Assembly: GCA_965637545.1 (NCBI GenBank)
Contig: OZ281501.1
Location: forward strand, 19,034,001-19,098,000
Direction of reading: 5' to 3'
From: Phallusia mammillata
Taxonomy: Eukaryota
DNA length: 64,000 bases
Below, in pieces: positions 6,341 to 55,463 of this stretch. Every line of letters begins with the position of its first letter. Positions within the stretch are counted from its first letter, which is position 1. The notes under the pieces are model-generated. The model worked only from the letters and a program-made list of their open reading frames with translations, was not told the DNA's origin and did not search any database. Both the position numbers and the translations under genes were made by a program.

Positions 6341-7772
6341 CACATTAACTTCTCCGCAATCTTTACCAAATCATTTCTTAACCTGACATAAGACAGGTTT
6401 CATTGATCTCTTATTTTCAACTACTTGTTTCTTTCCGGAGGAGGTGATTGGTTGGCCAGAACACGCGGCTGCTTGATTGAGCGAACGAGAACTCCGCAGG
6501 CAGCTGAATTGGGGATTCCGAAGCTGACTTGCAGGGGCGCCAAGGTTAATATAAAAGCAAAGAGCTGATTCCACGCGCTTTTAAACACGTTTTCCTGGGA
6601 GCGGATGATAGAAGCTGCACGTAAGTTTGGGTTAAATAAATAAGATATGTGGTGTTAAATGTTATAATACTTAAACGCCATAGTATATTCACATACACGT
6701 TGTAACATAGGGTATTTACGGTATTGTTTTAATGTATAAGTTTAAATACCAAACAATTCAGTGATTACACATTATGGTGGTGTGTTTTAATCTCTGAACT
6801 GTATAATCTAATCATGTACACCTGGTAACTAAGTATATTCGACATAGTTTATTAAATAATTAGGTTGGCAACCGAATTAACTAATTACTGCAGAGTTATT
6901 GATCTCAAACGTGTGGCCTGTTTCATCGAGAAACATTTATCTTATCATATGCGCGTTATAACGTAAGGTATATTAAGTACAGTTTGGATATATAAGGTTA
7001 GAACCGAATAAATTACTGATTATCGCATATAGTTTTGCGAGTTATCAAACGTAACGTGTAGTAAACTGTCGCTTTTACAAACTGTATTGACAGTGTAGTT
7101 GGTTTAGGAATGAATAGCTAGCTTCCCAGTTAGCTTATCAGAGCGGTTGGTAGCAATCCTTGTATGCTTTGGGAAACAAATGTTTTTGCCTAAGGTTAAT
7201 TGGTTTCTGTGTTTTATGCCTTTCGAAACTGCCGACGTGAAGCAACCGTCTTTAACTGAATGCTCGAGTGATACTGTTTGTAGTTGTGCGTTTCGTCTTC
7301 CCACTGTTAAAGTTAATTTCTCTTAAAAGCAGAACTACGCTCGTTTTCAAAATATTAAGATCAGGTCACACTCGTTTATGAATTAGTATACGCCAGGTTT
7401 ATATGAGGCTTCATACCGAATTAGATGCTTGGGAGACCGGCTTTACTCGGTATAACGCCTCTATATGCCTGGCGTAATCTATTTCTATTACAGAGTAACA
7501 ATTTATTTTGTCACTATAACTAGAGAAATCTATTGATAATAATCGTAATGCAAGTTTGTAGGGCATATGCACAATTTATTTGGTTACTTTATATATCTTA
7601 AATTTTGATGTCTACTTTACACTAATTGCAACTTACATATTTTGCAGCTGTTTCGTCACAATGTCGTGATTTATGACGATGGCACTGTATGACGTCATAG
7701 TGACAAAACCGGTTTGTTAACCGGACAAAACCGGTTTTCTGCTCGGGACGATTTTAAAGCACTTAGGGACTT

Positions 7773-7947
7773 ACCCAGAACCTTGTTTTGTTTTTACTAT
7801 TTTTTGTTTACTTTTTTTCTCTCCTCTTTTATTCCTCTTTTATTCTTTTTTATTCTGAACTTGTTTTTTTCGCCGCACTATATAATATCGAGGGTGTGCA
7901 CGGCCCTTTATATTATTTTTGCGGATTTTTGAAACCAGGTTCTGGGT
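7773..7947. repeat. Nested inverted-repeat (cruciform / MITE-like) element; copies at 10006-10166, 19110-19276, 22200-22360, 39378-39544, 42398-42556
   Basis: Outer IR ACCC(A/G)GAACCTTGTTT; inner IR CCGCA..TATAATAT; central GTGCAC. Confidence 0.7.
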
Positions 7948-10270
7948 TACTTACTACGCGCATAAACGGCCCCTTTACTTAATTTATAAATGTTTAATCT
8001 TAAAGCGAATAACGGCATTTAATTGTTTAACTCTGAAACCGGTTTTGACACACTAAATGAGAACCTTGCAACCATCCAACGGACCTGAACGGAACTGAAG
8101 CCCCAGTGGTCAGTGAAGGGCAGCTTGTTTTCCCTTTGTCGCATGCGGGCGCATAATGCATTGTGACGAACCTTGTAGTAAAGACGTCCATTTAGGACAA
8201 TTGTGTAGGCTTTGTTTAAGTCTACAGCGGTGGGTCCTGGCCCGCGAGGCAATTTTTCATGACACGCCAAACGGTTTGTGCGTTCATATTAGCGTGCGTA
8301 TATTTATTAGCTACATTAGAGTTTTATGAAATAAATAACGTTCCATGTATGATACTTGGAAATTTGTAAGAATTGTTAATTTGTCTGCAGCTGAGTGGAG
8401 ACGACGGGATAAGGAAGCGACGATGATCAGATCCGTATATCCGGACCAAAGGTGTTGACTGGAGTTGATCAATCAACAAATCAGCAAGCACCAGGAGGAG
8501 GTTAAAATGTTTGTTTTGTCGCTTGAGTGACGTAACCATTAGTGACGTCATGTTGGTAACGTCATTCATCCCCTTTAAGTTCTTATTTAAAGTATCTTAT
8601 TCCATTTTGAACATGCTTATTACCGCATAGGTTAAATATATGTTTGTGTGCCTGTATTAATTAAGCGGTGAATGATTCCAAATAAGTTTTCAGTCTGTAA
8701 TGATACGCTACTGTTGTCTCCATCTCTCGTACTGAGTCTCTGGTGACTCGTGATTATACAATAAACAACACAGTTTAGGAGGGTAATAGGGTTACTATAA
8801 AAATTTTTGCGAGAAAATGAGGGTTTTTTGGTGAAATAAATTTCCACGTTTGTTGCACATTGCTATTGTTTAAACGTTGTTTGTCTGCAGCTGAGTGAGA
8901 CGACAGGATGGTCCATCGGTCGGATGGTCCATCGGTACACCACATTTACTTGGATTACGCAAGAAACAACTCAATCTCTCCATCGAACAAGAAACTTAAA
9001 TTCCGATAAGTCAGGTTTCGAGTCTGTCGTGTAATTCACCAAAGTCGTTCAAACAAAATCATTTCAATGTAACTCCATACTTTTAATATAATTTCATGAC
9101 TTGATAGTAGTTTTTACTTTATGGACCCTATTGTAGATTTTTTACTGTTTTTTATAAATTTTTTATGTGCATCTCCCGTAATCGGGTTTTGCTTTCATAA
9201 CTTGGACGACATAAAATGCACGACAAACTCTTTGCATGTGTTTGGTCTAGCTGTTTGTTTTTAATGTGTTTACGCTAAATGTGTTAGGTTAATTGGGAAC
9301 TTAAAAGGGGGTCCACGATGGCGGTTTTACTTGGTTGGTTTACAAAACCTCTACATTAGCCCCCATTCACAAATAACAAGTTTAAGCTAACTAGGTAATT
9401 TGTCATGGAACCTAATTGTTCATAAGTTAACTCCCATGTTTATAAGTAGTGTTAATTTTAACGGTATAATGATTCATTACTGCTAAGGTCACTTCCATAC
9501 CCTTGTTAAAAATTAGTTTCAAAACTAAATACTGTCGTTAAAAGTGTTATTAAATCACAGTTGGTCTTTCAAACTTCTGATCTGAATTACACAGTATTTT
9601 ATAACCCATAGTTTTTGCTCCCTTCTATCGCGTTCATGCCCAACTGCATTCGTTGACTTTACGCCTTCGTACTTAACCACGGTTTTAAACCAGGACTATA
9701 TCCTAAACTGAAATACAATACAATACAAACTTAAATTTTTAACCATCTAATCTAATCTTAGTTTAGTTTTTGAATGTATGTAATTACTTTACTAATCGCC
9801 ATTACTATTCCTAGATCCCAATATGCACAACTGCAGCGTTAAAAGGTTACGACCGAGCATTGATCAGCTAAATTGTGTCAAATACTCGATCTATTAGATT
9901 TGTTTTAATTGCGTTTAAACAACCATTTGTCCAAGGTACTTGATCCACCAGTTTTTGAGCTTTTAAACCGAATATCATGGGTAATAATGATAAAGTTAAT
10001 GGGATACCCGGAACCTTGTTTCATAATCTATTTTTATTTACTTTTACTTCACTTCTCTTTTATTCTTTACATTCCTTGCATTTTTATTTTGCCGCATTAT
10101 ATAATATGGGCGATTCGTGCACTGTCTCCCATATTATTTTTGCGGATTTTAAACAAGGTTCCGGGGTTATTTTTGCGCATAAACTGTAATATAAACTTCG
10201 ATAAAAACGTAATTACGCCTTTACCGCATCTTCGCATAGTTTATTTTTTCTGGTGGATCAAATATTCTAT

Positions 10271-10459
10271 CCCCTAACACGTTACGTCATAGTAGGGTAA
10301 TTCCCATGAGCGCGCCCCCCTCTACTAACAAGTTACGTCATATTAGGGAAATTCCCAAAAGCGCGTCCCCCTCCCCCTAACGTGATACCTCATAGTAGGG
10401 GATTTCCCTAAAGCACATTTTCCTCCCCTAACACTTTACGTCAAAGTAGGGGAGTTCCT
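10271..10459. promoter_or_regulatory. Tandem array (4 x ~51 bp) of CRE/ATF-like TTACGTCA plus NF-kB-like GGGRNWTYCC sites
   Basis: kB-like sites at 10295, 10346, 10398 and 10449; TTACGTCA at 10282, 10333 and 10436. Confidence 0.6.
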
Positions 10460-11737
10460 GTTTGCTCAAGAAAACACAAGTTGGCGCTGTATTAATTTTT
10501 CAACTTATTTCCTTTTCAGTGAGGTTTTGTATTCTACCTGGTAAACCGCATTAGTTAAGCGTGTGTGTGTTGTGAGGGTTTTAATACTTAATGTGTAATT
10601 GGTAATATATGTTTAAATATGTTTTTATTTGTAAATAGTTTTGTTAACACTAATGTACATGTTGAAATATATTTGTTTTTTTGGGGGGTTTTGATAACAG
10701 CATAGGTATGTTTGTGTGTGTGTATGTTTGTGTTACTGTTTTTACTAGGAGTTTATCCCCGTTTGTATAGGCTTAATTGTTTGTAGCTGTAGTGTTTGTT
10801 TATATATATATACCTGTTTCGGTAACAGATATATGTGTCTATATCTGTTACTGATTTACACTGACAGATATATATTTATAAATGTGTGTTTATGATGTTT
10901 TTGTGTATTTTTATTTTTGTTAACGCTGTTAAATTTACTTTACCATGTTTTCAGCTTGCGCCTTTCGTGCGCCAGTCTGTTTTCCTCGTTTCTGTTGTAG
11001 TTCTGCACCGAACGAGGGTTTCTCTACTACCTTAGACGAAACCCATTGCGTGGGTTGACACCTTGACGTGGTGCAATGGCTTTTAAACCAAGATCAACCC
11101 GCAGAATCCAGTGTTTACCCCAGTTTTTTATCCAAATGTTTATGTTGTAAAAAACGATGAACTGATCTTATCTCTTGCGTGTTTAGGCTCCTCGGTAATA
11201 AACAATTATTTTTTTCATTCCTTCACACACCTTAGATGCGAAATTCGATTCAGCGTTGCATAATGAACAAAGACTTTCTTGAAAAAAAGTACTTCTTCCT
11301 GTCTTGGTTTAATTTATTTCTGCTTTATTTTTTACTGGAGTTTTTTGTATCGAAATAAAATTACACAAACGACGGTAAAAAACAATAAAATAAACTTTCA
11401 TAGTACGCCAGGCCCATTGAAGGCGTAATTACGAATCAAGCCAGTCACCAAACATTCCCATACGGCATAATATCTGAAGTCAACTTTGTTTTAGTTTAAA
11501 GCCTGATTCGAACCATTGGTGACCAACTAAATCTCCTTGTATGTGGTTAAACATACTTTCGTTGCAGATATCATAATTTAAAACCTCAATAGTGCTGGTG
11601 GAAGCTAGAGCAATTTCCAAATGTGCCACAAAGTTAACTGCGCCAGATATCTGCACATTAGCCTAAAAAAAAACCAAAACACTTTTCGTAACCAATAGTG
11701 AATACGTTTGTTATAAAATCCCCGGTTTCTTAGAGAG

Positions 11738-14042: not shown

Positions 14043-14140
14043 ATACACATTACGTTATTGCTGGTTTAATACACATTACATCATTGCTGGTTTAATACAC
14101 ATTACATCATTGCTGGTTTAATACGCATTACATCATTGTT
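14043..14140. repeat. 26-bp minisatellite (TACACATTACATCATTGCTGGTTTAA)n; copy number 1-4 among paralog upstream regions
   Basis: About 4 units here, ~3 at 25149-25230 and 47338-47420, and 1 at ~12958. Confidence 0.8.
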
Positions 14141-15115: not shown

Positions 15116-16891
15116 ATGTATTTGTTTCCTAAGCTTGTTTTCCTCTTGACAATCATCGATGCGTCATATTGTCATGACAACCACCAGCAAAAATATTTGG
15201 TTTGTCGGCCACTTGACAGTTTGTTTGAGCAACAACTTTCAAGTTCATTGAATCAGTCAACACTAAGAGGACCTCCAGGTCGGCCAGGTAAACGCGGACC
15301 TCCTGGTTATAAAGGTGACCAAGGTCAACCTGGTCCGGTTGGACCCCAGTCATTGCTGAATTGGACCCGAATCGACAATCGTATAAGTGAAATAATTAAT
15401 GGTAAGACTTTAGTTTTCTTTTGTTAATAAGATAAGAAATTTTAACCGCTGTCCGAATTCTTAATATAAACCTGACAACAAAATCAAAGCTTAAAACACG
15501 AATTTACAAAACTATGTTATGCCAATACATTTACTAATTGCTACTGCAAATGCACTAAAATTGGTTGTGGAAATGCTTTCAAATAATGCGTCAAATAGTA
15601 AGTAACCAAGTATGCAATAATTCTGAAACTTTTAGTGTCACTGGTGAGTTCCCAGAAATACATGGTGGCAGAATTACAGCTTTGACGTCACGCATGTAGC
15701 AGGTAAATCCCAACACAAGTGACAAACTTCCTACAGGAGCTGGTTAACTGGTTGTTTTCCTCGCAAACTCCAGTATTTCTTAAATATAATCCTCACATAT
15801 CAAATCCTCATGGGGGTTCATCACTGAGCCGGTGTAGTTTAAAGCGCGAGTCCTGGAAAGACTCCTTTTGTGGATTCGAATCCCACCACAGGCTAGATTT
15901 TTCTTTTTCCAATAGCCGTCCGAAATTCAGGCGTAAATGCTATGTTTTGAATTTTAGCGTCTAGTACCCTATTCTGCAGTAGTTTTCACAGTTGTTTTTA
16001 CATAAATGCATCAACAATCGAAAAGCATTAACTGACAAACATTTACTTATTTGACGTCTTAAATATTGAAGTTAATAACCATCTTTAACAATTTGGCGCA
16101 ATATCGTGCAAACAAATTTGCTCTAAAATTGGAATTACCTCAAATTTAGCACAGTTGCGACAACATTGACACAAACAAGCCAATAAATTTGCCACTCCGA
16201 CAATGTCAGTCATTATTTGTAAAGGTGAAACTTCTTTCTATTTGCAGAACAAAGAAACTGTACAGGAGTCGTGTACAGAGATCATTGCTACTGGCTACCG
16301 TGGATTGTTGCAACATGGAGTGGTCACGCTGGAAAGTCGGCAGCTGCATATGTTTGTAGTTCTTACGGAGCCACATTGGTTGACATAGAGACTAAAGAAC
16401 AATATGATGTACTTTACAAATACATTGGAAAAGCTTGGCAGATGTACGTTGATCAACCGACATACGATTTTGTTCGAGTGTGGTTGGCATCAAGTTACAC
16501 GGTGAGTGTTTCATTTCTTACAATCGACAACTCATTGTGAAGGGAACAGTGTTAACAAAGACAAACAAATTTATATTGAGGAACTACTTAAATAGTTGTT
16601 TAACTTTTACTATTTTATAGGTGTTTAGTAAAAACAAATAGTTTAAGTAAGTCAGTCGTAAATAGATTGATTAGCTGGTTTCATGTTGTGGCCAATCAAC
16701 GTTAATTTGTTTAGAATGGAAATGCGGTGAGCTCCACAGGTGGGAGCGTTTACACACGATGGTATAGCGGCTATCCTAACAACAACCCTGGTATCGGATG
16801 GATTGTGAGAGAACCTACATATTCTGGGGCTTCCGGGATGCAGACAATTACCGAGAGTTATCAAAACGCTCTGCCGTTCTGTCGCCTGTAA
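15116..16891 (+). CDS. Collectin-like protein paralog 2; join(15116-15401,16248-16501,16715-16891), 238 aa, short collagen (9 Gly-X-Y)
   Basis: Signal peptide [19 protein letters not shown]; collagen [27 protein letters not shown]; neck [13 protein letters not shown]; CTLD-like C..HCYW...[15 protein letters not shown]...W..GYP..FCRL. Donors G/gtaag and ACG/gtgag and acceptors cag/ and tag/ give a continuous frame. Confidence 0.85.
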
Positions 16892-19800
16892 ATTACCTTT
16901 TAAATTGTTTTTCAGAAACAATAAAATATTCACTAGCCTGTTTCTGTGATAAATTAATTAAACCCAAAGACTTTGTCAAGCTTAATTCAAGTTAAATGAT
17001 CGCATCGGCAAATATCGCAATATCGTTGCCTTTTTTCAAGTTTTTGTTAACCTAACCCAAATGTACACATGTTTGTTAACTAACCGATATAACTTTGTCA
17101 CAAACGGTATTTTGTAAATATTTAAAAACTCACAATTTAAAATGTATTGAAACCTGCGCTTTGTCGGGTTTTTGCTGGAGTAGAAAAATATCGAGTTTGG
17201 GATGTGAGGAAAAATAATAGAGTATAAAGACCAGCTTCGGTCTAAATGACAATTAACATTTATTTTGGTGTTGTTTGGTAATTTTTCTGCCGCAGCGCGT
17301 TGTACCAAATTTTTAAACTTGTTGTTATTTCATTGTTAATAAATTCAATTGGGTGTTGCAAATGTGTGTTTTATGCGGTTTAAAGTAAAACCAGTAGGAT
17401 ATTGGTTTGACAGCAGCAAGAGCATGAAGACCAACATCTTAGGTTGAATGTGCACAAAAAGTAGATCAAAGTTTCAATTCTACATTAAATGCTGCGTCTA
17501 AGTTTAACATTAAAGCATCATACGTTTTCTTTTCAAGGTTGCAGGGCAACTGTCGCACGTCATGTATGTTTGAAGGTAGTTTTTTCGCCAATGTCGCAAG
17601 CAAGTAACTTTTTAATTTTATAAGGCTCTCGTTTCATGATCCAAAGATCGTGTGTTCAAATCCCTCAAAATCCGAAAATCGCTTAAACATGATAAGTTAA
17701 TGAATAATAACGTCTCAATTTTATTTCATGTTAAAACGTTTCTTCAATCTTGTCCATGTAAAACTCTCACAAACAAGCAAAGTTTAATGTTGCAAACTTG
17801 CTGCAAACAAGCAGGTGATTGGTTGGCCAAAACACGTGACGGCTTGATTGAGCAAACGAGAACCCCGCAGGCAACTGAATTGGGGATTCCGAAGCTGACT
17901 TGCAGGGGCACCAAGGTTGATATAAAAGCAAAGAGCTGATTCCACGCGCTTTTAAACACGTTTTCCTGGGAGCGGATGATAGAAGCTGCAGGTAAGTTTG
18001 GGTTGAATAAATAAGATATGTGGTGTTAGATGTTATAATGCTTAAACGCCATTGTGTATTCACATACATTTTGTAACATAGGGTATTTACTGTATTGTTT
18101 TAATGTATAAGTATAAATACCAAACATTGTAATGATTACGCATATAGCGATTTGTTTTAATCTCTGAATTGTATAACCTAATCATGTACACGTGGTAACA
18201 AAGTAACAAATAGGTTAGCAACCGAATTAACTAATTACTGCATAGTTGTTGAACTCAAACGTGTGATGGCCTGTTCCATCGAGAAACATGTATCTTATCA
18301 TATGCTCGTTATAACGTTACGTATATTAGGTATAGTTTGAATATATAAGGTTAAAACCGAATAAATTACTGATTATCGCATATAATTGTGCGAGATATCA
18401 AACGTAACGTGTAGTAAACTGTCGCTTTTACAAACTGTATTGAAAGTGTAGTTGGTTTAGGAATGAATAGCTAGCTTCCTAGTTAGCTTATCAGAGCGGT
18501 TGGTAGCAATCCTTGTATGCTTTGGGAAACAACTGCTTTTGCCTTAGGTTAATTGGTTTCTGTGTTTTATGCCTTTCGAAACTGCTGATGTGAAGCAACC
18601 GTCTTTAACTGAATGCTCGAGTGATACTGTTTGTAGTTGTGCGTTTTGTCTTCCCACTGGTAAAGTTAATTTCTCTTAAAAGCAGCACTACGCTCGTTTT
18701 CAATATATTAAGATCAGGCCACACTCGTTTATGAATTAGTATACGCCAGGTTTATATGAGGCTTCATACCGAATTAGATGCTTGGGGGACCAGATTTACT
18801 CGGTATAACGCCTCTAATATGCCTGGCGTAATCTATTTCTATTACAGAGTAACAATTTATTTTCTCACTATAACTAGAGAAATCTATTGATAATCGTAAT
18901 GCAAGTTTGTAGGGCATATGCACAATTTATTTGGTTATAAATATCTTGAATTATTGATGTTTACTTTACACTAATTGCAACTTACATATTTTTCAGCTGT
19001 TACGTCACAATGTCGTGATTGATGACGATGGCTCTGTATGACGTCATATTGACAAAACCGGTTTGTTAATTGTTTCTGCTCGGGACGATTTTGAAACACT
19101 TAGGGATTTACCCAGAACCTTGTTTTATTTTTCCTATTTTTTTGTTTACTTTTTTTCTCTCCCCTTTTATTCTTTTTTATTCTGAACTTGTTTTTTTCGC
19201 CGCATTATATAATATCGAGGGTGTGCACGGCCCTTTATATTATTTTTGCGGATTTTTGAAACAAGGTTTCTGGGTTACTTACTACGCGCATAAACGGCAC
19301 CTTAACTTAGTTTATTAACGTTTAATAACGGCATTTAATTGTTTAACTCTGAAACCGGTTTTGTCACACTAAATGACAACTTTGCAACCATCCAACGAAC
19401 CTGAACGGAACTGAAGCCCCAGTGGTGAGTTTTAGAAGGGCAACTTGTTTTCCCTTTGTCGCATGCGGGCGCATAATGCGTTGTGGCGAACCTTCTATAG
19501 ATAAAAGTTTCTATTTATATACTGAAGACGTCCGTTTAGGACAATTGTATAGGCTTTGTTTGAGTCTACAGCGTTGGGTCCTGGCCCGCGAGGCAATTTT
19601 TCATGGCACGCCAAGCGGTTTGTGGGTTCATATTAGCGTGCGTATATTTATTAGCTACATTAAGAGTTTTACGAAATAAATAACGTCACATGTATGTTAT
19701 TGGGTTTTTATTAGTATTGTTGATTTGACTGCAGCTGAGTGGAGACGACGGGATAAGGAAGCGACGATGATCAGATTCATATATCCGGACCAAAGGAGTT

Positions 19801-22463: not shown

Positions 22464-22650
22464 CCCCTAACACCTTACGTCGTAGTAGGGAAATTCCCAT
22501 TAGCGCGCCCCCTCTCCTAACAAGTTACGTCATATTAGGGAAATTCCCAAAAGCGCGTCCCCTCCCCCTAATGTGATACCTCATAGTAGGGAAATTCCCT
22601 ACAGCGCCTTTTCCTCCCCTAACACGTTACGTCAAAGTAGGGGAATTCCT
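22464..22650. promoter_or_regulatory. Second kB/CRE tandem array
   Basis: GGGAAATTCCC at 22488, 22538 and 22589; GGGGAATTCC at 22640. Confidence 0.6.
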
Positions 22651-23085: not shown

Positions 23086-23599
23086 TGTTTATGATGTTTT
23101 GTGAAGTTTTATGGTTGTTAATGCTGTTTAATTTACTTTGCCATGTTTTCAGTTTGCGCTTTTCGTGCGCCAGTCTGTTTTCCTCGTTTCGGTTGTAGTT
23201 CTGCACCGAACGAGGGTTTCTCTACTGCCTTAGACGAAACCCATTGCGTGGGTTGACACCTTGACGCGGTGCAATGGCTTTTAAACCAAGATCAACCTGC
23301 AGAACCCAGTGTTCGATTCAGTGTTATATGATGACCAACGACTTCGGAAAACTTTGGAAAATACTTGTTCGTGCATTAGTTTAGTTTATTTCTGCTTTAT
23401 TTTTTACTGGAGTTGTTGTATCGCAGTAAAGTTACACATACGAAGTAAAAAACACGAGGTTTCCTAGGAAAGTTTAGGCAGAATGAAGTAAATTATTGAT
23501 AGCTCAGTTGTGACCTAAGTAACATTTAAGTGGGAACCCATGAGTTGCTTCTTTTCTGCTAGAGCCATGCGTTACTTCTGAACGCATAGGTTGCCTTGG

Positions 23600-24759: not shown

Positions 24760-26263
24760 CTGCAAAACACAGAGAAAAAAATCAGGCAGTGGAAATACCG
24801 TTTGTGCACGTCTGACTTTGCTCGCTTGAATTTGTCTGCAGCCAAGGAAAGCTGCGGTTACGTCATTTCAGCCAGACTCGCTGGAAACGTATTTAAGCGA
24901 GCAAAAGTCATTTCTGCAAAAATATTACGCCTTGCTGGGAACACTTTATTGTAACTATATATCACATGTTTCCCTTTATTGTGATTTTTTATCGTATCTT
25001 TACTGAATTATATCATACCACAATTGATTTTTTCAGGTGTATAAAAGCAGAACCAACCTTATTATTTTTACAAACGTTTTATTTTCACAAACAAAACAAC
25101 ACAAATTTAAATGCAGATTCGAATTCATCAGACATATCAGCACACATGATACACATTACGCCATTGCTACGGTTTAATACACATTACATCATTGCTGGTT
25201 TAATATACATTACATTATTGGTGGTTTAAACAAGTGCTCACACGAAAGTCCCGAGGACATCTTAACAGTTTTATGTGACGTTTGCGGTGGAACAATGGTG
25301 CTTTGTCGACACGAGCTGTTTACAGGTTCACCTTGTCCCACTGAGATGAACAAAGCGGCTACTTAGGCAGGTGTATGAATAAGCTATTGTCAGTTTGACA
25401 AGAAAGTATTTTTACCCAATTAAGTAACACTCGATATAACTTGAACTGCATGCGGGATCAAATGCAACTTTGTTTGTTAACAAATCCAGCCAGCAGGCGA
25501 TCTGCTTAAATTTTTTCTCAAAGTTGGGTGGCTGAAAAATTTTTGGGGTCGGCGATTTTTGTAAGGAAGTCCTCTACCATTTAATATTATTTTATCTGCA
25601 GTTTGAGGCACAAAATAATTTGTTATAATTTACACACCTTTGACATATCACCATTTTTGTAGCAGACATTATAACGTTTTAACTTGTTTTGCGTAATTTT
25701 GCATAACTAGCTCAAATTCTGCAAGTCAATTTTATTTTTTCTTAATTACATACTCAGGTTTAAGGACCGCAAGCCCTAGATATAATGACAAAGTGACTGT
25801 TCTGAAAAAATAATAAATAATTTGAGAACCACTGAGTTAAATGAATATAAATCGCAGAGGCTTAACTTTCACAGTGGTCGATTGGAGAAAAACAACGATT
25901 GGCGGTTAATGAAACAGTCTGCAGCATATTTCGAAACTAATAAACGGGCATGGATTTATTGTAAGGCAAACAATCGGCAGAAACGTTTTGCCAAGGCAGC
26001 AAAACAGTTTTGTGACATTCGCAGTGGAACAATGGTGCTTTGTCTACACGAGCTGTTTACAGGTTCACCTTGTTCCAATGAGATGAACAAAGCGGCTACT
26101 CAGGCAGGTGTGTGAATAAGTGATTGTCTTTCCAACAAATTATCGGTTACCGTGATGGCATTACGTCAGTTTGTTATGAAGCAAGCCACTGTTTGTTACG
26201 CCGTCCGTGGAAATCTGTCGTCGCTTTGTCGAAGTTTTTTACAGGCTCTCCCTTCAACTGCAC

Positions 26264-40100: not shown

Positions 40101-42730
40101 CAGCAAGCACCAGGAGGAGGTTAATATGTTTGTTTTGTCGCTGGAGTGACGTAACCATTAGTGACGTCATGTTGGTTACGTCATCCATCCCCCCTTATTT
40201 AAAAGAACCTTATTCCCTTCTGATGATGCCTATTACCGCATAGGTGAAATATTTGTTTGTGTGCCTGTATTGATTAAACGGTGAATGATTTCAAAAAAGT
40301 TTTCAGTTTGTAATGATACGCGACTGTTTTCTCCATCTCACGTACTGAGTCTCTGGCGACTCGTGATTATACAATAAACTACACAGTTTAGGAGGATAAT
40401 AGGTCTACTACAAAATTTTGTTGCGAGAAAAAGAGAGTCTTCTTATGTGAAATAACTTTCTACGTTTGTTGCACATTGCTGTGTTTAAAACGTTGTTGAT
40501 TTGTCTGCAGCTGCGTGAGACGACAGGATGGTCCATCGGTCGAATCCGGATCTACAGGAGTTGACTAACGAATCAGCAAACATCAGAAACAACGACATCA
40601 GGAAAGTAACGAGGTAACTTTGTTGAAATGAATCTTAACTTGTACGCCAGGCTTAATATAGATGTTGTATGAAACCAACGCGCACATCCATGCATTTTTA
40701 TATGGGGAAGCGTGAAGTGGAAAAATCTAGCCTGCGGTGGGATTCGAACCCATGATGTGTGTTGTTCTTTAAATCACAGTTTTTATAAATTAACCACATA
40801 GGTTTTTTGCAAGCGCTAGGAAGCAAAGCACGAAAATACGGTTCGTAACAGACATGCAAAACACACTACATTTTTCAACCTACCCATGTTGTCAAACCCA
40901 GTCGTGTTGCCCTTCGCGCCGCTCGCTTCTCCAGTGAGATCACAACTTTTGTGTCACTTATTAGTCGTCTTAAAGTTAGTCTACTTCACTTAACCTACGT
41001 TCCCAATATACGTATGTATTACCGTTCCCAATATACGTATGTAGTACCGGTATAACGCCTTCAACAGGCCTGGTGTACTGTGATTTATGAATGAGTGTGC
41101 CGTGATCGCTGGTCTGCAAGGACGCTTCAGGGCTGATCCCAGTAGGAATGTATTCAACTTTATTTGTACCATTCTCTATAGATTTTATGTGCGAATTCAA
41201 AAATACAAGTTAGCATACCAGTGATTGATGTATTACTAGGCATTCCAACTACCTTTGCAGTTTATGAACTTTCCATGTAACTTATAATAGTCGCAGGCTT
41301 AGCACAAGTACAACTTTACATTTATTTCCAGGAACTGCACCACATTTACTTGGATTACGCAAGAAACAACTCAATCATCGAACAAGGAACTTAAATTCCG
41401 ATAAGACAGGTTTCGAGTCTGTCGTGTAATTTACCAAAGTCGTTCAAACAAAATAATTTAAATGTAACTCCATACTTTTAATATAATTTCATGACATGAT
41501 AGTAGTTTTTACTTTATAGACTCTATTGTAGATTTTTTAATATTTTATAAACTCTTAATTTTCATCTCCCGTAATCGGGTTTTGCTTTCATAACTTGGAC
41601 GACATAAAATGCACGACAAACTCTTTTCATGTGTTTGGGTAACTAATGTGTTTAGGCTATTTGTTGTTGTGTTAAATTTGTTTAGACTAATTAATTGGGA
41701 ATTTAAAGGGGGGACCACGATGGCGTTTTTACTTGGTTAGTTTACAAAACCTCTACATTACCCCCCTTCACTAATATTAAGTTTTCTTTCGCCTTAATGG
41801 GATAATGTGTCATGAAAACTACTTGTTTGTAAGTTTACTCCCATATTTAATAAGTAAAGTTAATTTTAACGATATATTAATTCATTACTACGATGGTCCC
41901 TTCTATACCCTTCTTAAAAACTACCTTCGTTAAAAGTGTTATTAAACCATATCCAAATCTTTCAAACTTTAGACCTTAATTACATAATTATTTTATAAAC
42001 TATAGTTTTTTGCTCCCTTACATCCAACGTAACGTTAATGCCCAGTTGCAGTCGTTGACTTTACGCCTTTGTAATTGAACCACGGTTTTAAACCAGATTC
42101 TTTTCCTTATCTTAAAAACAGACTTAAATTTTCACCCATCCAATCTTAGTTTAGTCTTTCATGTATATAATAACTTTACTAATCGCCATTACTATTCCTA
42201 GATTCCAATATGCACAACTGCAGTTTTAAAAGGTTACCAGCGAGGATTGATCAGCTAAATGATGTCAAATAATAATCATTCTATTCGCTTTGTTTTAATT
42301 ACGATTCAAACAACCATTTATCCAAGGTACTTGATCCACCAGTTTTTACGTTTTTAAATCGAATATTATGGGTAATAGAATGATAAGGTAATGGGATACC
42401 CGGAAACCTTGTTTCATGATCTATTTTTTATTTACATTTACTTCACTTCTCTTTTATTCTTTACATTCCTTGTATTTTTTTCGCCGCATTATATAATATC
42501 GAGGGTGTGCACGGCCCTTTATATTATTTCTGCGGATTTAAACAAGGTTCCGGGTTTATTATTTGCGCATAAACTGTAATATTAACTTTGATAAAACGTA
42601 ATTACGTCTTTACCGCAACCTCGCATAGTTTACTTTCTGTTGGACCATCAAAATTCGACAAAACTTGGCTACACGCCATTACCGGGTGCTATTGGCCTTG
42701 CCTTTGCACTCCGGGCTGCGCCGTCGTTGT

Positions 42731-42990
42731 CTAATATTTGCGAACCTCTTGCCTCTGGACGCCCGACACGGCGTGCGTCTTGGTGAGATGGTCAGTATAC
42801 TCCTGGTATGGTGTTTTTGTCAACGGCTGGTCGCGCCACAGGTCAGGGGTCAAGTAGCTGTACGTCTTCGAGATGGCATTGAACGTGGCCTTGGCAAAGT
42901 TTCCCAGCGTGGCGGTCTGTCCAGCGGCAGATGTGTAACAATCTTCCAAACCAGCCATACTCAACAGCTTTTTGGGTACTGGAGCTGACA
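42731..42990 (-). pseudogene. RPS2: 40S ribosomal protein S2 (uS5) C-terminal fragment, intronless insertion
   Basis: [51 protein letters not shown]...PYQEYTDHL is the RPS2 C-terminus. It is GC-richer than its flanks and absent from the homologous sites at ~10260 and ~22455. Confidence 0.9.
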
Positions 42991-43074
42991 TTTTGTATTT
43001 GTATCCCTTTGTGACACCAGTAGCCATGTTTTTAATATGACTGCAAATTGTGCGCACACATGACAGGTCCTTGC

Positions 43075-43198
43075 GTTATAGTAGGGGAATTGCCTTAAGC
43101 GCCTTTTCCTTCCCCTAACACTTTACATCATAGTAGGGGAATTCCCTAAAGCGCCTTTTCCTCCCCTAACACGTTACGTCAAAGTAGGGGAGTTCCTG
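43075..43198. promoter_or_regulatory. Third kB/CRE array (3 units; 5' part replaced by the RPS2-containing insert)
   Basis: GGGGAATTGCC at 43084, GGGGAATTCCC at 43136, GGGGAGTTCC at 43187. Confidence 0.55.
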
Positions 43199-43478: not shown

Positions 43479-44399
43479 TTGTGTTACTGTTTTTACTAGG
43501 AGTTTATCCCCGTTTGTATAGGCTTAATTGATTGTAGCTGTAATATTTGTTCATATATATATATATCTGTTTCAGTAACAGATATATGTGTCTATATCTG
43601 TTGCTGATTTACAGTGACAGATGTAAATATATGTTTATGATGTTTTTGTGTATTTTTATTATTGTTAACGCTGTTTAATTTACTTGCGCCAGTCTGTTTT
43701 CCTCGTTTCGGTTGTAGTTCTGCACCGAACGAGGGTTTCTCTACTGCCTTAGATGAAACCCATTGCGTGGGTTGACACCTTGACGTGGTGCAATGGCTTT
43801 CAAACCAAGATCAACCTGCAGAACACAGTGTTTTCCCAGTTTTCATTCCCAAATATTTATTTTGTTCTTACCCTTTGCGCGTTTTGGCTGTTGGGCAAAA
43901 AATAAGTTTGTTTTTTATATTCCTTTACACACTTTCCTCTACAGATACATATGCGACATTCGTGATGGCCTCAGATTTCGGGAAACTTCGGAAAAACTTC
44001 TTCGTGCCTTGGTTTCATTTATTTCTGCTTCATTTTTTAATGGACTTTGTTGTATCGCAATAAAATAACACTTACAAATGTAAAAACCACGCAGTTTACA
44101 CAGACAGAAAGTACCTATTTTGGCTGTTAAGGCAGAAAAAAGTAAAACATTGATAACTCAGTATTGCTCCATGTAACATTTAAATGGGGACCTATGCGTT
44201 ACTGCTACAACGAGAATTGACCTTATGTTTCCTGTTTCAGATTATTTGCGGTCACCCATGTGTTTCTGCTTGTGGCAAAAAGTAACGCATGGGTCTCCAA
44301 AAAACATGGCAAAAGCAGTAACACATGGGTCCCGTAATTAAAATAAGCAGAACTTTTACTAATTTTTTTAACTGACCCCAAACTTAAGAGAACCCTTAT

Positions 44400-46972: not shown

Positions 46973-48429
46973 CTGCAAAACATAGAGAAAAAATCAGGCA
47001 ATATGTGCACGTCTGATTTTTGCTCGCTTGAATACGTCTGCAGCCAAGAAAAGCTGTAGTTACGTCATGTAGTTTGCAGCCAGACTCGATGGAAAGTCAT
47101 TTCTGCATAACTTACATATTACGCCTAGCTGTGGGAACATTTTTTTGTATGATATTACATGTATCTCTTTATTGTTATGTTTTATTATATCTTTACTGAA
47201 TTGTATCATACCACAATTGTTTTTTTCAGTTGTATAGAAGCACAACCAAGCATATTAGTTTTGCAAAAATTTTATTTTCACAAACGAAAACAACACAAAC
47301 TTAAATGTAGATTCGAATTCATCAGTTTATTTCAGCATACACATTACGCACGTCGTAGTTGGTTTAATACGCATTACGTCGTAGCTGGTTTAATACGCAT
47401 TACGTCATTGTTGGGTTAAACCAGTGTTTACTCGTGGAAGTGCCGAGGACAGCAAAACAGTTGTGTGACATTTGCGGTGGAACAATGGTGCTTTGTCTAC
47501 ACGAGCTGTTTACAGGTTCACCTTGTCTCACTGATATGAACATAGCGGCGTCTCAAGCAGATGTATGAATAAGGGATTGTCTTTCCAACAAATTATCGAT
47601 TACAGTGATGTGATTACGTCAGTTTGACATTAAGCAAGTCATTGTTTGTTACGGCGTCCTTTGCAACTCATGTTTACCCACAAGTTTGAGGTAGCGCAAC
47701 ATTTTCTGGCTTATTTACAGTTTGCCTGATGAAACACATGAACCAAGAAAGTATTTTTGCTCAATTACGTAACACTCGATATAACTTGAAATACATGCGG
47801 GATCAAATGCAACTTTGTTTGTTTACAAATCCAGTCAGCAGGCGATCTGCTCAAATTTTGCTGTAATATATTTGTTTTAACTTTATAGAGTTGATTTTTG
47901 CATTGTAAAGAACAGAGTTTCCCAAAGTTAGCTTGAAAAATATTTTCGGTCGCCGATTTTAGTAACGAAGTCTTCTACTTTTAATATTGATTTGCAGCCT
48001 TTATTTTTCCCACAGCTTAAGTCATACTTCCATGTTTATGACACACTTAAATCTTTTCCATAATTTAAAAACCTTTGACATATCACAATATTTGTAGCAG
48101 ACATTATTACAGTTTTACTTGGAGTAGTGTTAAATTCCAAAATCCCCAGAAACACAATCGAATTTAGTCACATTTGCAGTGTGAAAGACTAGCGTCGCTT
48201 TGTCGAAGTTATTTACAGGATTTCCCTCCAAATGCACTGACGTCATGGAACAAACACCGACAATGCGAGTAGTCGAAGAAATAGGCGATTGTTTCAGCAT
48301 CAGTTGCCATGATAACAGCACGAGAGCCGTTTTTGAAGAAAGGAGCCTTTTTTCTTGAGGCACTTTTGTCATTTTACAAATGCCTTCAAGTCACCAAAAA
48401 TAATCAGTTGCTTTTAGTCTTCGGGCAGG

Positions 48430-50549: not shown

Positions 50550-51439
50550 ATTAACTTTCAATTTGTTTTGTAGAAACATTAAAATATTTACACTTCTGCT
50601 TCTGTCACAAGTTAATTAAAACTGAAATCTTTGGTGAGCTTAATCCAAGTTGAATGATCGCACCGACAAATATCGCAATATTTTAGCTTTTAGCTTTCCG
50701 ATTCAAATGTACATATGTTTGTTTGCTATATTAATTTGTCACAGACGCTATTTTGTAAATCTTTAAAATCTTTTTCAAAATGTATTGCAACCAGCGCAGT
50801 GTCGGGTTTGACGCTGGAGTAGAAAAATATCGAGTTGGGATGTGAGGAGAAATAATAGAGTAACGATCAGCTTCCATCTAAATGAAAATTCACATTGATT
50901 TTGGTGATTTTGGTGATTTTGGTAGTTTTTTCTCGCAGCACGTTGTACAAAACTTGAAACTTGTTGTTGTTTCATTGTTAATAAATTTAATTGGGTGTTG
51001 CAAAGGTATGTTTTATGCGGTTTAAAGTGAGACCAGTAGGATCTTGGTTTGACAGCTGCAAAAGCATAAAGGCCAACATTTTATGTTGAATGAGCACAAA
51101 AAATAGATCAATGATTTTATTCTACATTAAATTCTGCTTCTGATTTTATCGTTAAAAAATATCTCACGTCTTAAGCATTAATATACGTTGAAAATACGAT
51201 CACAATATTAAATCGCAAACAAAAATTTATGGGTAACCAAGGCTGTGTCTTGAGATGCCAATAAAGATTCTTTGATCTTGTTTTGTTTTATTTAATTTTT
51301 TGTTTTATTGCTCAATATTTTAAAATATTTAACTTATTTTGTATGTCAGGTTCGGTTTCGCTTCATTTATAAACACAGATTTGAATAAGGTACCTAAGGC
51401 AAAAAGTTAATAAAAATTTATGTTTTTGCTGAAAAAAAT

Positions 51440-52228
51440 ATGTCACCGTCAACACCCAAAAAAGGAGCTGCATCACTTTCTACTAAAGTAGATTCCTTGC
51501 TACAACAAGTCTCTACAAACACCGAAGAGTTTAATGGTAAACTCAACTCAGTATTATCTGAGTTAAAAATAATTAAAGAGAGCCAACACTTTCTGTCCAA
51601 AAAATATGATTTATTGCAAAAAAAACTCAACTTAACTGAAGAAGAAATGAAATCTTTAACAAAAGAGAATACAGAGCTAAAGAAGAGCTTAAAAGAAATG
51701 CAAAAAGTTGCCGACAACAACAAACAAGCAATAAATTCACTGGAACAGTATGGTCGAAGGGACTGTCTTGAATTCAATGGCATTCCTCTTACAGAGTCTG
51801 AAAATACAGATGAAATAGTTATGGCAATTGCAAAGCAAGTTGGTGTACCCGTAAGTAAACCCGACATAAGCATTTCGCACAGGCTGCCAAACTCAAGATC
51901 ATCTAACCAAAAGGTCTCACCTACAATAATTGCCAAATTTACTAACCGAAGACTACGGGATAATATTTTCAAGAATCGGATTAAGCTCCACAATCAAGCA
52001 TCAGCTGCAACAAATAAATCAAAGATTTACATCAATGAGAGCCTAACCAAAGAAAATCGTAAACTATTTTATGCATGTCTTCAATTTGAAAAACAATCGG
52101 ACTACAAGTTTTTATGGACTAGAAATGGAACAATTCTACTCAGGAAAAATGAAACAAGCCCCACCATCAGCATCCACAGTGAAAAGGATCTTATCACACA
52201 CAACATCATCATCCCTGAAAGTACATAA
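51440..52228 (+). CDS. LINE ORF1 (coiled coil + RRM-like + CTD nucleic-acid chaperone)
   Basis: Coiled coil followed by LEQYGRRDCLEFNGIP, SHRL, IYINESLT and FLWTRNGTILLRK motifs, typical of this ORF1 class. Confidence 0.85.
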   Translation: MSPSTPKKGAASLSTKVDSLLQQVSTNTEEFNGKLNSVLSELKIIKESQHFLSKKYDLLQKKLNLTEEEMKSLTKENTELKKSLKEMQKVADNNKQAINSLEQYGRRDCLEFNGIPLTESENTDEIVMAIAKQVGVPVSKPDISISHRLPNSRSSNQKVSPTIIAKFTNRRLRDNIFKNRIKLHNQASAATNKSKIYINESLTKENRKLFYACLQFEKQSDYKFLWTRNGTILLRKNETSPTISIHSEKDLITHNIIIPEST

Positions 52229-52516
52229 AGAATCAATATCAGTATGTTTATTTATTTTTATGCTTTACATAATGTGTTCTTTAATTACTAACTTATTTCC
52301 TTTGCCTACCTATACTGTGGATATAATATACACCTATGTTTACACTAGTCCATATTCTTTAATCAGCCAAAGGTTTGTTCAAACAAACTCAACAAAAAGC
52401 TTACCTCCTTCCATAACTTGTCTGCCTTCCCATGCCTTGGGATTTAGCTACTCCCCACATAAATGGCACTTATTTCCAGTGTTTATCATTAGAACAAAAC
52501 ATTCCAACTACTTCCA

Positions 52517-55463
52517 ATGGTGAGTCATTTGGACAATGATACATTTTCCTCAGTAGCCCACAGTCAGCAATACAGTCCAGCAGAATTCAAACACCTGTTA
52601 ATAGGATCAAACCAGTTATCCCTAGTACATCTTAACACAAGAAGCCTGCACAAGAACTTGGGAAAAGTAATTGAGCTAATTCATACCATTAACTGCAAAC
52701 CGGACATTATAGCCATTTCGGAAACAAAGCTCACAGTAAACAAACATAACCTAATTAACATGCCTGGCTACAACTTCCTTGCAACTGACTCTTCCACTCA
52801 TGCTGGTGGTGTTGGCCTTTACATCAATGATTCAGTCCCATTTAATCCACGTTCTGACCTTCAATTGCACCATCCAAATACAGAAGATTTATGGGTAGAA
52901 ATCCAGGCTAATAAATCCAAACATGTCATAATAGGCGTCATTTACTCTCATCCATCCCACAATAAATATATTTCAAAATTCAATGACTACAGCCATTGAT
53001 AAAATGAACACAAACAAAGAAACATATTACATTTGTGGAGATTTTAATATTAACCTACTTAACAACACCCCTCTTACACATAACTACATTCAAAGCTTAC
53101 AAGCATCTGGAAATCATTCCCTAATTGACACTCCGACCAGATTTATGCCCAATCAACAACCATCCCTTCTTGATCATATATACACGAACAACAACCCTGC
53201 ACTGTCCCTAGCAGGCACTATAACGTTTGACATCAGCGATCACTTACCAACATTTATGCTTCTAAAAGGACACAAATCACACACCCAGACCCAAGTCTGG
53301 ATACGTAAATTTAATTTAATAGATAAAAGTCAGTTTTTAGCAGATTTAGATTTAAAATTGTCTAATCATATCAGCTCCTACCTCGATAATCCCAACAAGT
53401 TATTCTCCGAATTTAATGACATCTTCATATCAGTCCTGTATAAACATGCTCCTCTTGTTAAACTCTCTAGATCTCATCAAAAATTCTACAAAAAGCCTTG
53501 GATTACAAACAGCATTATAAAGTCCATAAAAACTAAAAACAAACTATACCGCAAAGCTATTAAAAAACGGACCATTGCGGCATATAATAAATACAAAAAA
53601 TACAATAACACATTAACTCATATAAAAAAGAACGCCAAAATCAACTATTATGCAAGTATTTTACAAAGTAACTCTGGCAACCCAAAAAAGATGTGGAAGG
53701 TAATTGGGGATATACTAAACAAAAGGAAATCATCCCCACCCATCTCTTCCATGAAAACATCAGATTCCGATCCCACCACAACTTCTCATCCCCTAACAGT
53801 TGCCAACAACTTCAACAAGTACTTTTCCACAATTGGTCTGAAGCTTGCTCAATCCATTCCAGCATCAAATCATTCACCTCTAAAATATATCACCAGCACC
53901 TTCAATCATTCCATGTACCTACACCCTATTGATAACTATGAGATGGAAAGCACAATAAACAATCTTAAAAATAACTCCTCTAAAGACACCTTCGACATTC
54001 CCTTAAATTTAATCAAAGTTAGTTGTCCAATAATATCTGCATACCTTACTGAAATCTACAACCTTTGTGTAAGTACAGGTGTATTTCCAGATGACATGAA
54101 AATTGCTAAAGTGATTCCAATTTTCAAAAGTGGGGACCATCAACTTTTCTGCAATTACAGACCAATATCAATCCTTCCACATTTCTCGAAGATATTTGAA
54201 AAACTTTTGAAAAAAAATCTAAATTCTTACCTAAATAAATTCAATATCATCACAGATAATCAAGCTGGGTTTAGAACAAGTTTCTCAACAACACTTTCGC
54301 TTCTAGAATTATACGACTACCTTTTAATGCAAAATAGTGTAAAGAAGACAACATGTGCAATATTTCTGGATCTCAAAAAAGCATTTGACACCGTTGACCA
54401 CCAAATTCTTCTTGGTAAGCTTGAAAAACATGGAATTAGAGGCATTCCATTGAAACTTCTCACTTCGTTTTTGACCGGTCGTAAACAATTTGTAATGTTA
54501 AATTCAACACAGTCTCAGTATCAGGACATTGTTTGTGGCGTCCCGCAGGGCTCAGTTCTTTCTCCAATTCTATTTCTCATTTATATAAATGACTTACCTT
54601 CCATTACCAACTTCAAAACAAACTTATTTGCGGATGACACAGCTCTCTTCATGTCCAACAAAAACGTCCAAATATTAGAGGTTGAAGTAAACCAGCAACT
54701 AAACAAAATAAGCCAATGGATGTCTTCAAACAAGCTTACCATTAATACTTTAAAAACTAATTTTATAATTTTCCCTCAAAAATCAATCTCACAAAAATGC
54801 TTTAGCGTAAGTTGTGGTCAACAGAAACTAAACCAAGTGTCCCATACTAAATACCTCGGAATGATCATAGATGACAAACTCTCTTGGAAACAACATGTTG
54901 CATACGTTGCAAAAAAGCTAGCCTCTGGGTCAGGTATGCTATTTACGCTTAAAAAATATTTGCCATCAGCTTCATTAAAGCCTGTTTATTCAGCTCCTGT
55001 CGCAAGTCATTTGACTTATGGCATTCTGAGCTGGGGCACGGCTACATCCCAAACTCTACATCATCTAAATGTTCTTCACAATAAGGCTGTCCGAAATTTA
55101 ACAAACGTATCATACAGAGAAAACCTAAATCATGTATATTCGAAAAGTCAAATTCTTAAAATTCCTGACATGTACAATTTTGAACTAGGAAAATTTATGT
55201 TCAAAGTTCACAATAAGCTACTGCCTCCTGTCTACACCTCTGCCTATACTTACATTAGTTCCATTCATAATCATATAACACGTCAGTCTGCCACTAACCA
55301 CTTTTTCATCAAACGAATGTCCTCAACAAAATCCCAGGCAGCATCTATTTACCAAGGCCCAAAATTATGGAATTCCATTCCTCATTATATAAAAAACAAC
55401 CCTCTTCGCTTGTTTAGCAAATTATACAAAAAAAGCCTTTTGGATATGTATCTGACCTGGTAA
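52517..55463 (+). CDS. LINE ORF2 (AP endonuclease + reverse transcriptase), one frameshift near 52990
   Basis: HLNTRSL, ISET, GDFN, SDH (APE); NYRPISIL, FLDLKKAFDTV, GVPQGSVLSP, FADD, KYLG (RT). Confidence 0.9.

Follow-up and report, generated by a model that had tools for sequence, protein, structure and literature searches.

A tandem array of CRE-like and kB-like sites beside collectin genes is probably part of a subtelomeric spliced RNA gene predicted to cut and triplex-seal its own 3' end

The window, the whole 64-kb stretch of DNA that was analysed, is part of contig C8 and is about 0.7 Mb away from its end; TTAGGG repeats are found at either end of this contig. The window holds collectin-like genes and three tandem arrays whose unit joins a CRE-like 8-mer to a kB-like site through a 5-bp linker, as follows.

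10271..10459, + strand: array 1, built of four such units 51-52 bp long
22464..22650, + strand: array 2, in the second module copy, four units, spacing 50, 51 and 51
43071..43197, + strand: array 3, three units, spacing 52 and 51
15116..16895, + strand: collectin-like gene 2, with signal peptide, short collagen and divergent C-type lectin exons
26456, 33041 and 48430: start codons of collectin paralogs; the copy at 2261 is without a start codon
12840..14330, + strand: upstream block belonging to the collectin itself, present twice, with a TATA-like box in both copies

The units of array 1 stand at positions 10282, 10333, 10385 and 10436 (spacing 51, 52 and 51), and array 2 carries GGGAAATTCCC, an inverted repeat about a central A, at 22488, 22538 and 22589. 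In array 3, the 5' part has been displaced by a fragment of a ribosomal-protein uS5 (RPS2) retrocopy on the minus strand (42647-43070), at which no target-site duplication was seen. A preliminary description of this DNA had proposed tandem arrays that recur upstream of collectin paralogs, and both points agree with our counts: a 24-nt unit pattern allowing up to 3 mismatches gave 11 matches in the window (mean 0.02 and maximum 1 in 100 shuffles), and the arrays lie 4.7, 3.8 and 5.2 kb from the collectin start codons. The kB consensus was matched 16 times in the window, with 2.33 matches expected, and 15 of the 16 fall inside arrays. In array 1, two of the four units match GGGRNWYYCC, and an intact TTACGTCA occurs together with a strict kB site in one of four units in array 1, two of four in array 2 and none of three in array 3.

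Comparison between subfamilies gave identities of 0.88 for the CRE-like site, 0.79 for the linker, 0.78 for the kB-like site, 0.61 for the spacer and 0.62 for the flanking intron, over a shuffled baseline of 0.56, with the core values inflated somewhat by the choice of units for core likeness. The conserved CRE-like plus kB-like core proposed earlier is thus upheld, and conservation is indeed higher in the motif pair than in the spacers, although the 5-bp linker matches the kB site in this respect. GGGRNWYYCC is matched by 92 of 117 units, and the commonest variants all keep the kB consensus; the CRE-like 8-mer, at its 5-bp distance from the kB-like site, is exact in 84 of 117 and its CpG is kept in nearly all. 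Among the types of single change seen in the kB 11-mer, 5 of 12 keep the consensus, against 18 of 33 possible ones, and there is no enrichment. The supposed period of five helical turns applies to 42 of 62 distinct spacers (50-53 bp) and is not universal, since 20 give 39-45 bp; none gives 46-49 bp, and few independent events underlie these classes. Five and four helical turns would fit the two classes, and helical phasing of the array is suggestive only because most of the short spacers belong to one subfamily. We also considered a telomere-seed reading of the CCCTAA in the unit, which is weak, that stretch being only 0.61 identical between subfamilies.

The arrays are one part of a larger module of 3-5 kb. 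Its blocks upstream of the predicted RNA end, as they stand around array 1, are these.

6421..6625, + strand: promoter block P, with an inverted CCAAT, TATA at 6550-6557, short exon 1 and a GT donor at 6621
942, 17810, 38033 and 63655: starts of further copies of promoter block P
7787..7945, + strand: first inverted-repeat hairpin block, exonic in some isoforms
8040..8108, + strand: exon end and GT donor, joined to the mini-exon at 8391, in the collectin/C3 subfamily only
8391..8450, + strand: non-coding mini-exon M, 91-93% identical to another subfamily; second copy at 8891-8934
9154..9230, + strand: block B, in sister copies an exon that splices over the array into the last exon (joint L065:3427-5118)
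10005..10165, + strand: second inverted-repeat hairpin block, immediately 5' of array 1
10944..10954, + strand: splice acceptor for E, the last exon; the matching place is where one contig from run X4 starts

The order of the module, namely promoter P with TATA and first donor, hairpin, one to three mini-exons, blocks A and B, second hairpin, array and E, is fixed and was found at about 30 sites, most of them pointing toward the telomere. Between the window copy and a distant copy, successive blocks are 81, 74-77, 91-93, 76, 80, 72-78 and 96% identical, the last value being that of exon E. In the first hairpin block, U-rich stretches flank the apical stem on both sides, and by its sequence this block could be a second RNA stability element.

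Splicing was read from assembled contigs of four runs presumed to be RNA. The joint 8107-8390 (GT..AG, + strand) is present in contigs of three of the four runs, as are the joints 2478-2540 and 2654-2757 of the sister copy L065, while the joint L065:3427-5118, which leads from block B to E and leaves out the second hairpin and the array, is present in two of four. The donor matching 6621 is in use in RNA-type contigs of sister copies (joint at L065:2043). Inserted letters and a loose end at the B-to-E joint match a subfamily with a shortened E, so that the array-skipping joint derives from a subfamily whose last exon is partly deleted. Array 1 itself has almost no contig cover in the runs, and we do not count it as evidence. 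The longest ATG frames in two exon models are 42 and 47 aa. Taken together, the module is a spliced RNA gene, likely non-coding, and the array is intronic in sister copies. Two other readings of block E were ruled out: a protein exon, its frames being broken in the main family, and a minus-strand first exon, every GT..AG joint lying on the + strand. No long frame was found downstream of the ribozyme described below in the module loci. A module subfamily (L085, L087, L088 and L089) has lost most of the triplex and half of the ribozyme and carries a duplicated 16-bp piece; this deleted-end subfamily gives the best-covered spliced contigs, as expected if its RNA falls back on poly(A).

We searched genome-wide for the exact composite of CRE-like site, 5 bp and kB-like site and found 69 matches, against none for a reversed control. 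None of the 69 is more than 0.8 Mb away from an end of one of the eight large contigs, and 15 of the 16 ends have them; the outermost 1 Mb at each end makes up only 6.8% of these contigs. Telomere repeats were present at two of the five contig ends read. Five of the 69 are at collectins. In the retrieved DNA, 32 arrays were scored, five at collectins and 27 outside the collectin cluster, and 29 of the 32 are oriented toward the contig end (binomial 2.6e-6, a value that overstates the case because the array copies are related). The genome-wide search suggested in the preliminary description thus shows that the array is not specific to the cluster. Its alternative proposal of a resident dispersed element is supported, with module copies near 15 of 16 ends, whereas the idea that the array was built for, or is kept by, the collectins finds no support, given the 27 of 32 arrays and 64 of 69 composites that lie elsewhere and a 200-kb sister cluster on C4 that has no array. 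The module has the properties of a subtelomeric family: copies stand at most ends, and transcription runs toward the telomere, as seen from the orientation of the arrays and from splice polarity.

The relation of the array to the collectin genes was followed through the flanks. A search with the lectin exon gave 60 genome matches among 65 candidates, and the C4 cluster holds 10 lectin exons with 88-93% DNA identity over its 200 kb, with no array or module block. The tree of array flanks, which took 29 of the 32 arrays (three were dropped where flanks crossed locus edges), resolves four subfamilies, each with the array, and unites the five collectin copies with a collectin-free copy at C3:31.16 Mb in one clade (100/100). 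As the collectin copies group with the collectin-free C3 copy, the array is older than its link to the collectins, and its co-duplication with the collectin units, claimed earlier, is borne out. The collectin's own upstream block also precedes a module-free relative at C5:17.52 Mb, where no array occurs in the 3.8 kb read. Inside this block lies a 26-bp tandem repeat (window 14043-14138, 25149-25229 and 47337-47419), whose core we take to be C/EBP-ATF-like; to judge by its sequence, this repeat is a better candidate than the array for a collectin-specific control element. At 942-2261 of the window, a module promoter and first intron are joined straight to a collectin exon without a start codon, and no splice joint between module and collectin exon is present among the joints listed. 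Five units of the array-free cluster (C4:30.83-30.95 Mb) have paired kB-like sites at corresponding positions upstream, which suggests that the collectin family may be Rel-regulated.

The last exon, E, ends in two predicted RNA structures that stand directly next to each other.

10973..11042, + strand: predicted triple helix, with pyrimidine strand 10976-10983, upper stem 10984-10988 with 11013-11017, Watson-Crick strand 11018-11025 and purine tract 11034-11041
11043..11100, + strand: predicted P4-less HDV-like ribozyme, with the predicted cut between 11042 and 11043
11043-11049/11073-11079, 11052-11059/11092-11100 and 11060-11062/11070-11072: P1, P2 and P3 of the ribozyme
11063-11069, 11065-11080 and 11088: L3, P1.1 and the predicted catalytic C
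23171..23298, + strand: triplex and ribozyme of module copy 2
43690..43817, + strand: triplex and ribozyme of module copy 3, splice acceptor deleted

In an alignment of the 3' part of E, an HDV-like double-pseudoknot fold without P4 pairs 98.5% of 646 cells, with a 7-bp P1, P2 and a 3-bp P3 in double-pseudoknot order and with covariation. In P2, four pairs show two-sided changes, 28 cells in all, where slid controls give no more than 8; two-sided changes in P1 were seen in 17 cells against at most 1 in controls, in an alignment that left out rows with P4, a broken P1 or near-duplicate sequence, 20 relaxed-P1 sites having been retrieved. The relaxed-P1 pattern has 93 sites genome-wide, against 2 for its control, and six P1 sequence types. 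The P1.1 pair, between L3 and the bases after P1, is G-C in 34 of 34 and 22 of 22 rows and, being invariant, offers no covariation, and P3 is nearly invariant; the usual polarity of P1.1 in HDV-like ribozymes is C-G, the reverse of the one here. The first place of J4/2 (column 49) is C in 42 of 42 rows, a class criterion according to the available text of PMC10879173, and the same source describes P4-less ribozymes that are active and trim tRNA 3' ends. The base at +1 is C, not G, which does not bar membership of the wider HDV-like class because active ribozymes with C at this place are reported for the L1Tc/ingi clade in the accessible part of PMC4035085, a clade treated also in that of PMC3185411.

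A descriptor of the ribozyme gave 60 E-type and 9 other matches in 1.08 Mb, against 1-3 in shuffles, and its catalytic-base control did not discriminate (57 matches with A, 69 with C). A known RNA family for E was rejected, Rfam scans giving no ribozyme, ENE, tRNA or mascRNA match. Plain folding takes no account of pseudoknots and for this reason gave weak z-scores, -1.4 and -2.0 for E and -0.4 and -0.7 for the ribozyme part. Two contigs (X3 record 3 and X4 record 9) span the predicted cut, so uncut molecules or DNA exist.

The stretch directly before the predicted cut, read 5' to 3', has one pyrimidine strand, then a hairpin, another pyrimidine strand and finally a purine tract. Of the two pyrimidine strands, the first matches the tract in parallel orientation and the second is its Watson-Crick complement, giving a U-rich internal loop between two stems and an encoded purine tract that ends at the predicted cut. 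From family to family, and likewise from one of the two organisms to the other, single triples swap U.A-U for C.G-C or the reverse, with all three strands changed. Of 62 distinct ribozyme loci, 56 were parsed as having at least five triples that end 0-2 nt before the cut, compared with 20 of 3000 places taken at random. The parser chose looser U-runs at a few loci and, like the ribozyme parser, was written with the element already in view; the six loci where no triplex was parsed make up two families, one with a long P4. The predicted triplex has 6-7 triples, one of them non-canonical in the main family, and in copy 1 a pair of the lower stem is broken at 11029. An exact 24-nt pattern of E also matched metagenome contigs from another organism, 14 in number and making up about five locus groups; one frame near these copies resembles animal proteins and is a lead only.

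Copies of this cassette occur outside the module. Further E copies had no array within 4.5 kb upstream in 14 of 16 tested cases, and 7 of the 14 metagenome E loci scanned had no kB or CRE site; the array is therefore dispensable for the RNA end. Downstream of E, the DNA of 48 loci (counted from rows of which some are overlapping retrievals of one site) sorts into 19 groups and includes pieces, with introns, of GH9, EGF and glutathione-synthetase genes. A retrotransposon 5' end is the usual setting of such ribozymes in the text available of PMC6765202, and the 19 downstream groups argue against it here; a 5' ribozyme of a non-LTR retrotransposon is not supported, with no shared RT body downstream among the 48 loci. 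An ORF with UCH and Ulp1-type protease similarity ends in the triplex-ribozyme cassette, which lies in its 3' UTR 250-430 bp downstream of the ORF (L141:2-2560, L143, L144, L142; C1:11.166 Mb and others). The element is bounded by inverted arrays of 198-bp repeats, and the sequence makes the ORF a candidate non-poly(A) mRNA of a foldback-type transposon. These repeats do not flank the array modules and were found only around the UCH family; a Foldback/Mutator-like element around the module is not supported by the termini that were searched.

Several further settings were recorded. At C6:3.30-3.33 Mb (L151, L152 and L172), five tandem units of about 5.2 kb each close with triplex and ribozyme, and the last has a weak fibrinogen-domain frame on the opposite strand. 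In rDNA units (L153:7455-7518 minus, and L154), a P4-bearing version of the ribozyme lies antisense and immediately follows the part of the 28S rRNA gene that was matched; its P1 type occurs at 10 pattern sites, four small contigs among them. At L155:933-2600, a PIF1-like helicase frame is followed by a P4-bearing ribozyme without triplex, possibly in a Helitron context, and a dispersed family (L146-L149) has the ribozyme with no triplex upstream and hAT-type frames nearby. In the window, a LINE-type element (ORF1 with a Baculo_FP-like domain, endonuclease and RT) lies at 51398-55463, a second endonuclease fragment at 56321-56893 and a DDE_Tnp_4 frame at 60479-61012.

These data bear on several competing explanations. 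In one of them, the present main role of the array, irrespective of how it arose, is that of an infection-inducible enhancer for the adjoining collectin genes, which is unlikely in our estimate. The position of the array would suit this role, since it lies 2.4-3.5 kb 5' of the collectin TATA-like blocks, before five of the eight genes of the cluster, and takes in 15 of the 16 kB matches of the window; the paired kB-like sites of the five array-free C4 genes also suggest a Rel-regulated family, and inflammation raises ascidian collectins, as reported in the available text of PMC5465252. However, 27 of 32 arrays are elsewhere, and intact array-free paralogs exist in this cluster (three of eight genes), on C4 and on C5. 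The collectin-side units are moreover the more decayed ones, with 6 of 22 intact composites against 62 of 95 in the rest (copies that are not independent), and one array was partly lost to a retrocopy. We therefore rejected a collectin-specific enhancer as the main reading, given the array-free C4 cluster and the arrays and composites found elsewhere; the array may have an extra effect on the collectin promoters 2.4-3.5 kb downstream. A module that is a non-autonomous, cargo-carrying DNA transposon (Pack-MULE- or Helitron-like), whose array and RNA end serve its own spread, seems to us quite improbable. The 19 downstream groups with their intron-bearing gene pieces, the cassette at the end of the UCH/Ulp1 ORF within its inverted repeats, and the PIF1-like ORF upstream of another ribozyme copy would agree with such an element. 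The 198-bp repeats are absent around the modules, though, no transposase, Rep or RT frame was found beside them, no target-site duplication was identified, and the end-biased position and polarity fit exchange between subtelomeres.

We give little credence to the view that the 24-bp core marks where a single other protein binds, such as a multi-zinc-finger or chromatin-boundary factor, with an incidental likeness to kB and CRE sites. A linker as conserved as the kB part (0.79 and 0.78) and the change types seen (5 of 12 consensus-keeping, against 18 of 33 possible) would agree with a single footprint, but the commonest variants keep the kB consensus, as do 92 of 117 units, and the CpG of the CRE-like 8-mer is kept in nearly all. 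Repeated kB and CRE enhancers are known from large DNA viruses. ENE-bearing lncRNAs occur in large DNA viruses too, as described in the available text of PMC7583470, and on these two likenesses the module could be seen as the relic of an integrated DNA virus, with enhancer repeats, terminal hairpins and a triplex-bearing lncRNA. This origin, which the preliminary description had also raised, is barely credible: three patterns gave no match in viral contigs and none in phage records, and there are no viral-type frames beside the modules.

We consider it probable, judging from sequence and splice joints, that the array is part of a subtelomeric spliced RNA gene, likely as an intronic enhancer, whose RNA is predicted to cut and triplex-seal its own 3' end. 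Taken alone, the array is an ordinary motif cluster within a subtelomeric repeat, and it is likely an enhancer of this lncRNA family. In the mechanism that we propose, the fixed 24-bp core would recruit bZIP and Rel-type factors, which would in turn act on the TATA promoter lying 2-4 kb upstream. The ribozyme, as predicted from covariation, would cleave between 11042 and 11043, and the freed purine tract would fold back into the U-rich loop to form a blunt triplex, which is predicted to keep the RNA stable without poly(A). The cut may also curb read-through into downstream DNA, and by limiting it may let the module tolerate many neighbours. Modules would spread by exchange between subtelomeres (compare the available text of PMC7374410), and the tree supports a course in which one copy entered the collectin cluster and was then duplicated with the genes.

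A wider reading is tentative, and we would put it forward only as a possibility: the triplex and HDV-like ribozyme may form a portable cassette that gives protein-free Pol II 3' ends to many RNAs in at least two organisms, with NF-kB/ATF arrays switching the subtelomeric family on. If this were true, almost all chromosome ends would yield stable non-poly(A) RNAs linked to immune or stress signalling. Should the predicted cleavage and triplex be borne out, they would add a further route by which animal Pol II transcripts can end, one that poly(A) sequencing misses, and would give HDV-like ribozymes a clear host-side job; the claim of a self-cut end is cheap to test in vitro. The case also advises caution, as a motif array beside immune genes may be the passenger of a subtelomeric repeat. 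In the literature searched we found no precedent for a natural pair of triplex and ribozyme, and supplementary lists of ribozyme or ENE screens may already hold such loci; in the available text of a retrozyme preprint (10.64898/2026.07.22.740005), HDV appears only in a reference.

Known systems resemble parts of this arrangement. Composite enhancers of kB and ATF/CRE sites, such as those of E-selectin and interferon-beta, have adjacent bZIP-like and Rel-like sites at a fixed distance. The array shares this arrangement, with consensus sites and a CRE-like site at fixed spacing, but differs from them in being repeated two to six times in tandem, in being intronic and in its association with a repeated non-coding gene instead of with immune genes; collectins account for 5 of the 69 composites and 5 of the 32 arrays. 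At the level of the locus, Plasmodium lncRNA-TARE and human subtelomeric duplicon transcripts, as presented in the text available of PMC7374410, are likewise homologous non-coding loci at most chromosome ends, with telomere-ward transcription and many repeated factor sites. Unlike them, the modules lie 20-800 kb from the end and have a predicted self-made 3' end, and no sequence relation is expected.

As far as the available portions of the papers go, the ribozyme shares with L1Tc/ingi (PMC4035085, PMC3185411) and theta or minimal ribozymes (PMC10879173) a nested double pseudoknot, a 3-bp P3, a single-pair P1.1 and a C first in J4/2. Its C at +1 is as in the L1Tc/ingi ribozymes, and the lack of P4 and the predicted cutting of upstream RNA at its 3' end are as in the theta ribozymes. 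It differs from these known ribozymes in having its conserved part upstream and no shared retrotransposon body downstream, in its animal host and in its partner, a predicted triplex instead of a tRNA.

The 3' ends of MALAT1 and NEAT1/MEN-beta are similar in their U-rich loop between two stems, their encoded purine tract with matching G/C interruptions, their blunt end, which is predicted here, and a cutter placed directly downstream. In these RNAs a blunt triplex end is left when RNase P cuts a tRNA-like element (PMC7583470 and PMC11411715, in their available text), and within its available text PMC7583470 describes such an end only for MALAT1 and MEN-beta. In our case, the cutter is a predicted HDV-like ribozyme instead of a tRNA-like fold, there are 6-7 triples compared with 10 in MALAT1, and the gene is multi-copy, spliced and from an invertebrate. 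The pairing of a triplex with an HDV-like ribozyme was found described, in the sources available, as a laboratory construct only: an engineered 3' end made of the MALAT1 ENE and an HDV ribozyme works in human cells and stabilises translated non-poly(A) RNA (available text of PMC13403906). The two-part logic is alike, and the ends described here are predicted to be a natural version of the MALAT1-type end, built from their own sequences and present in at least two organisms.
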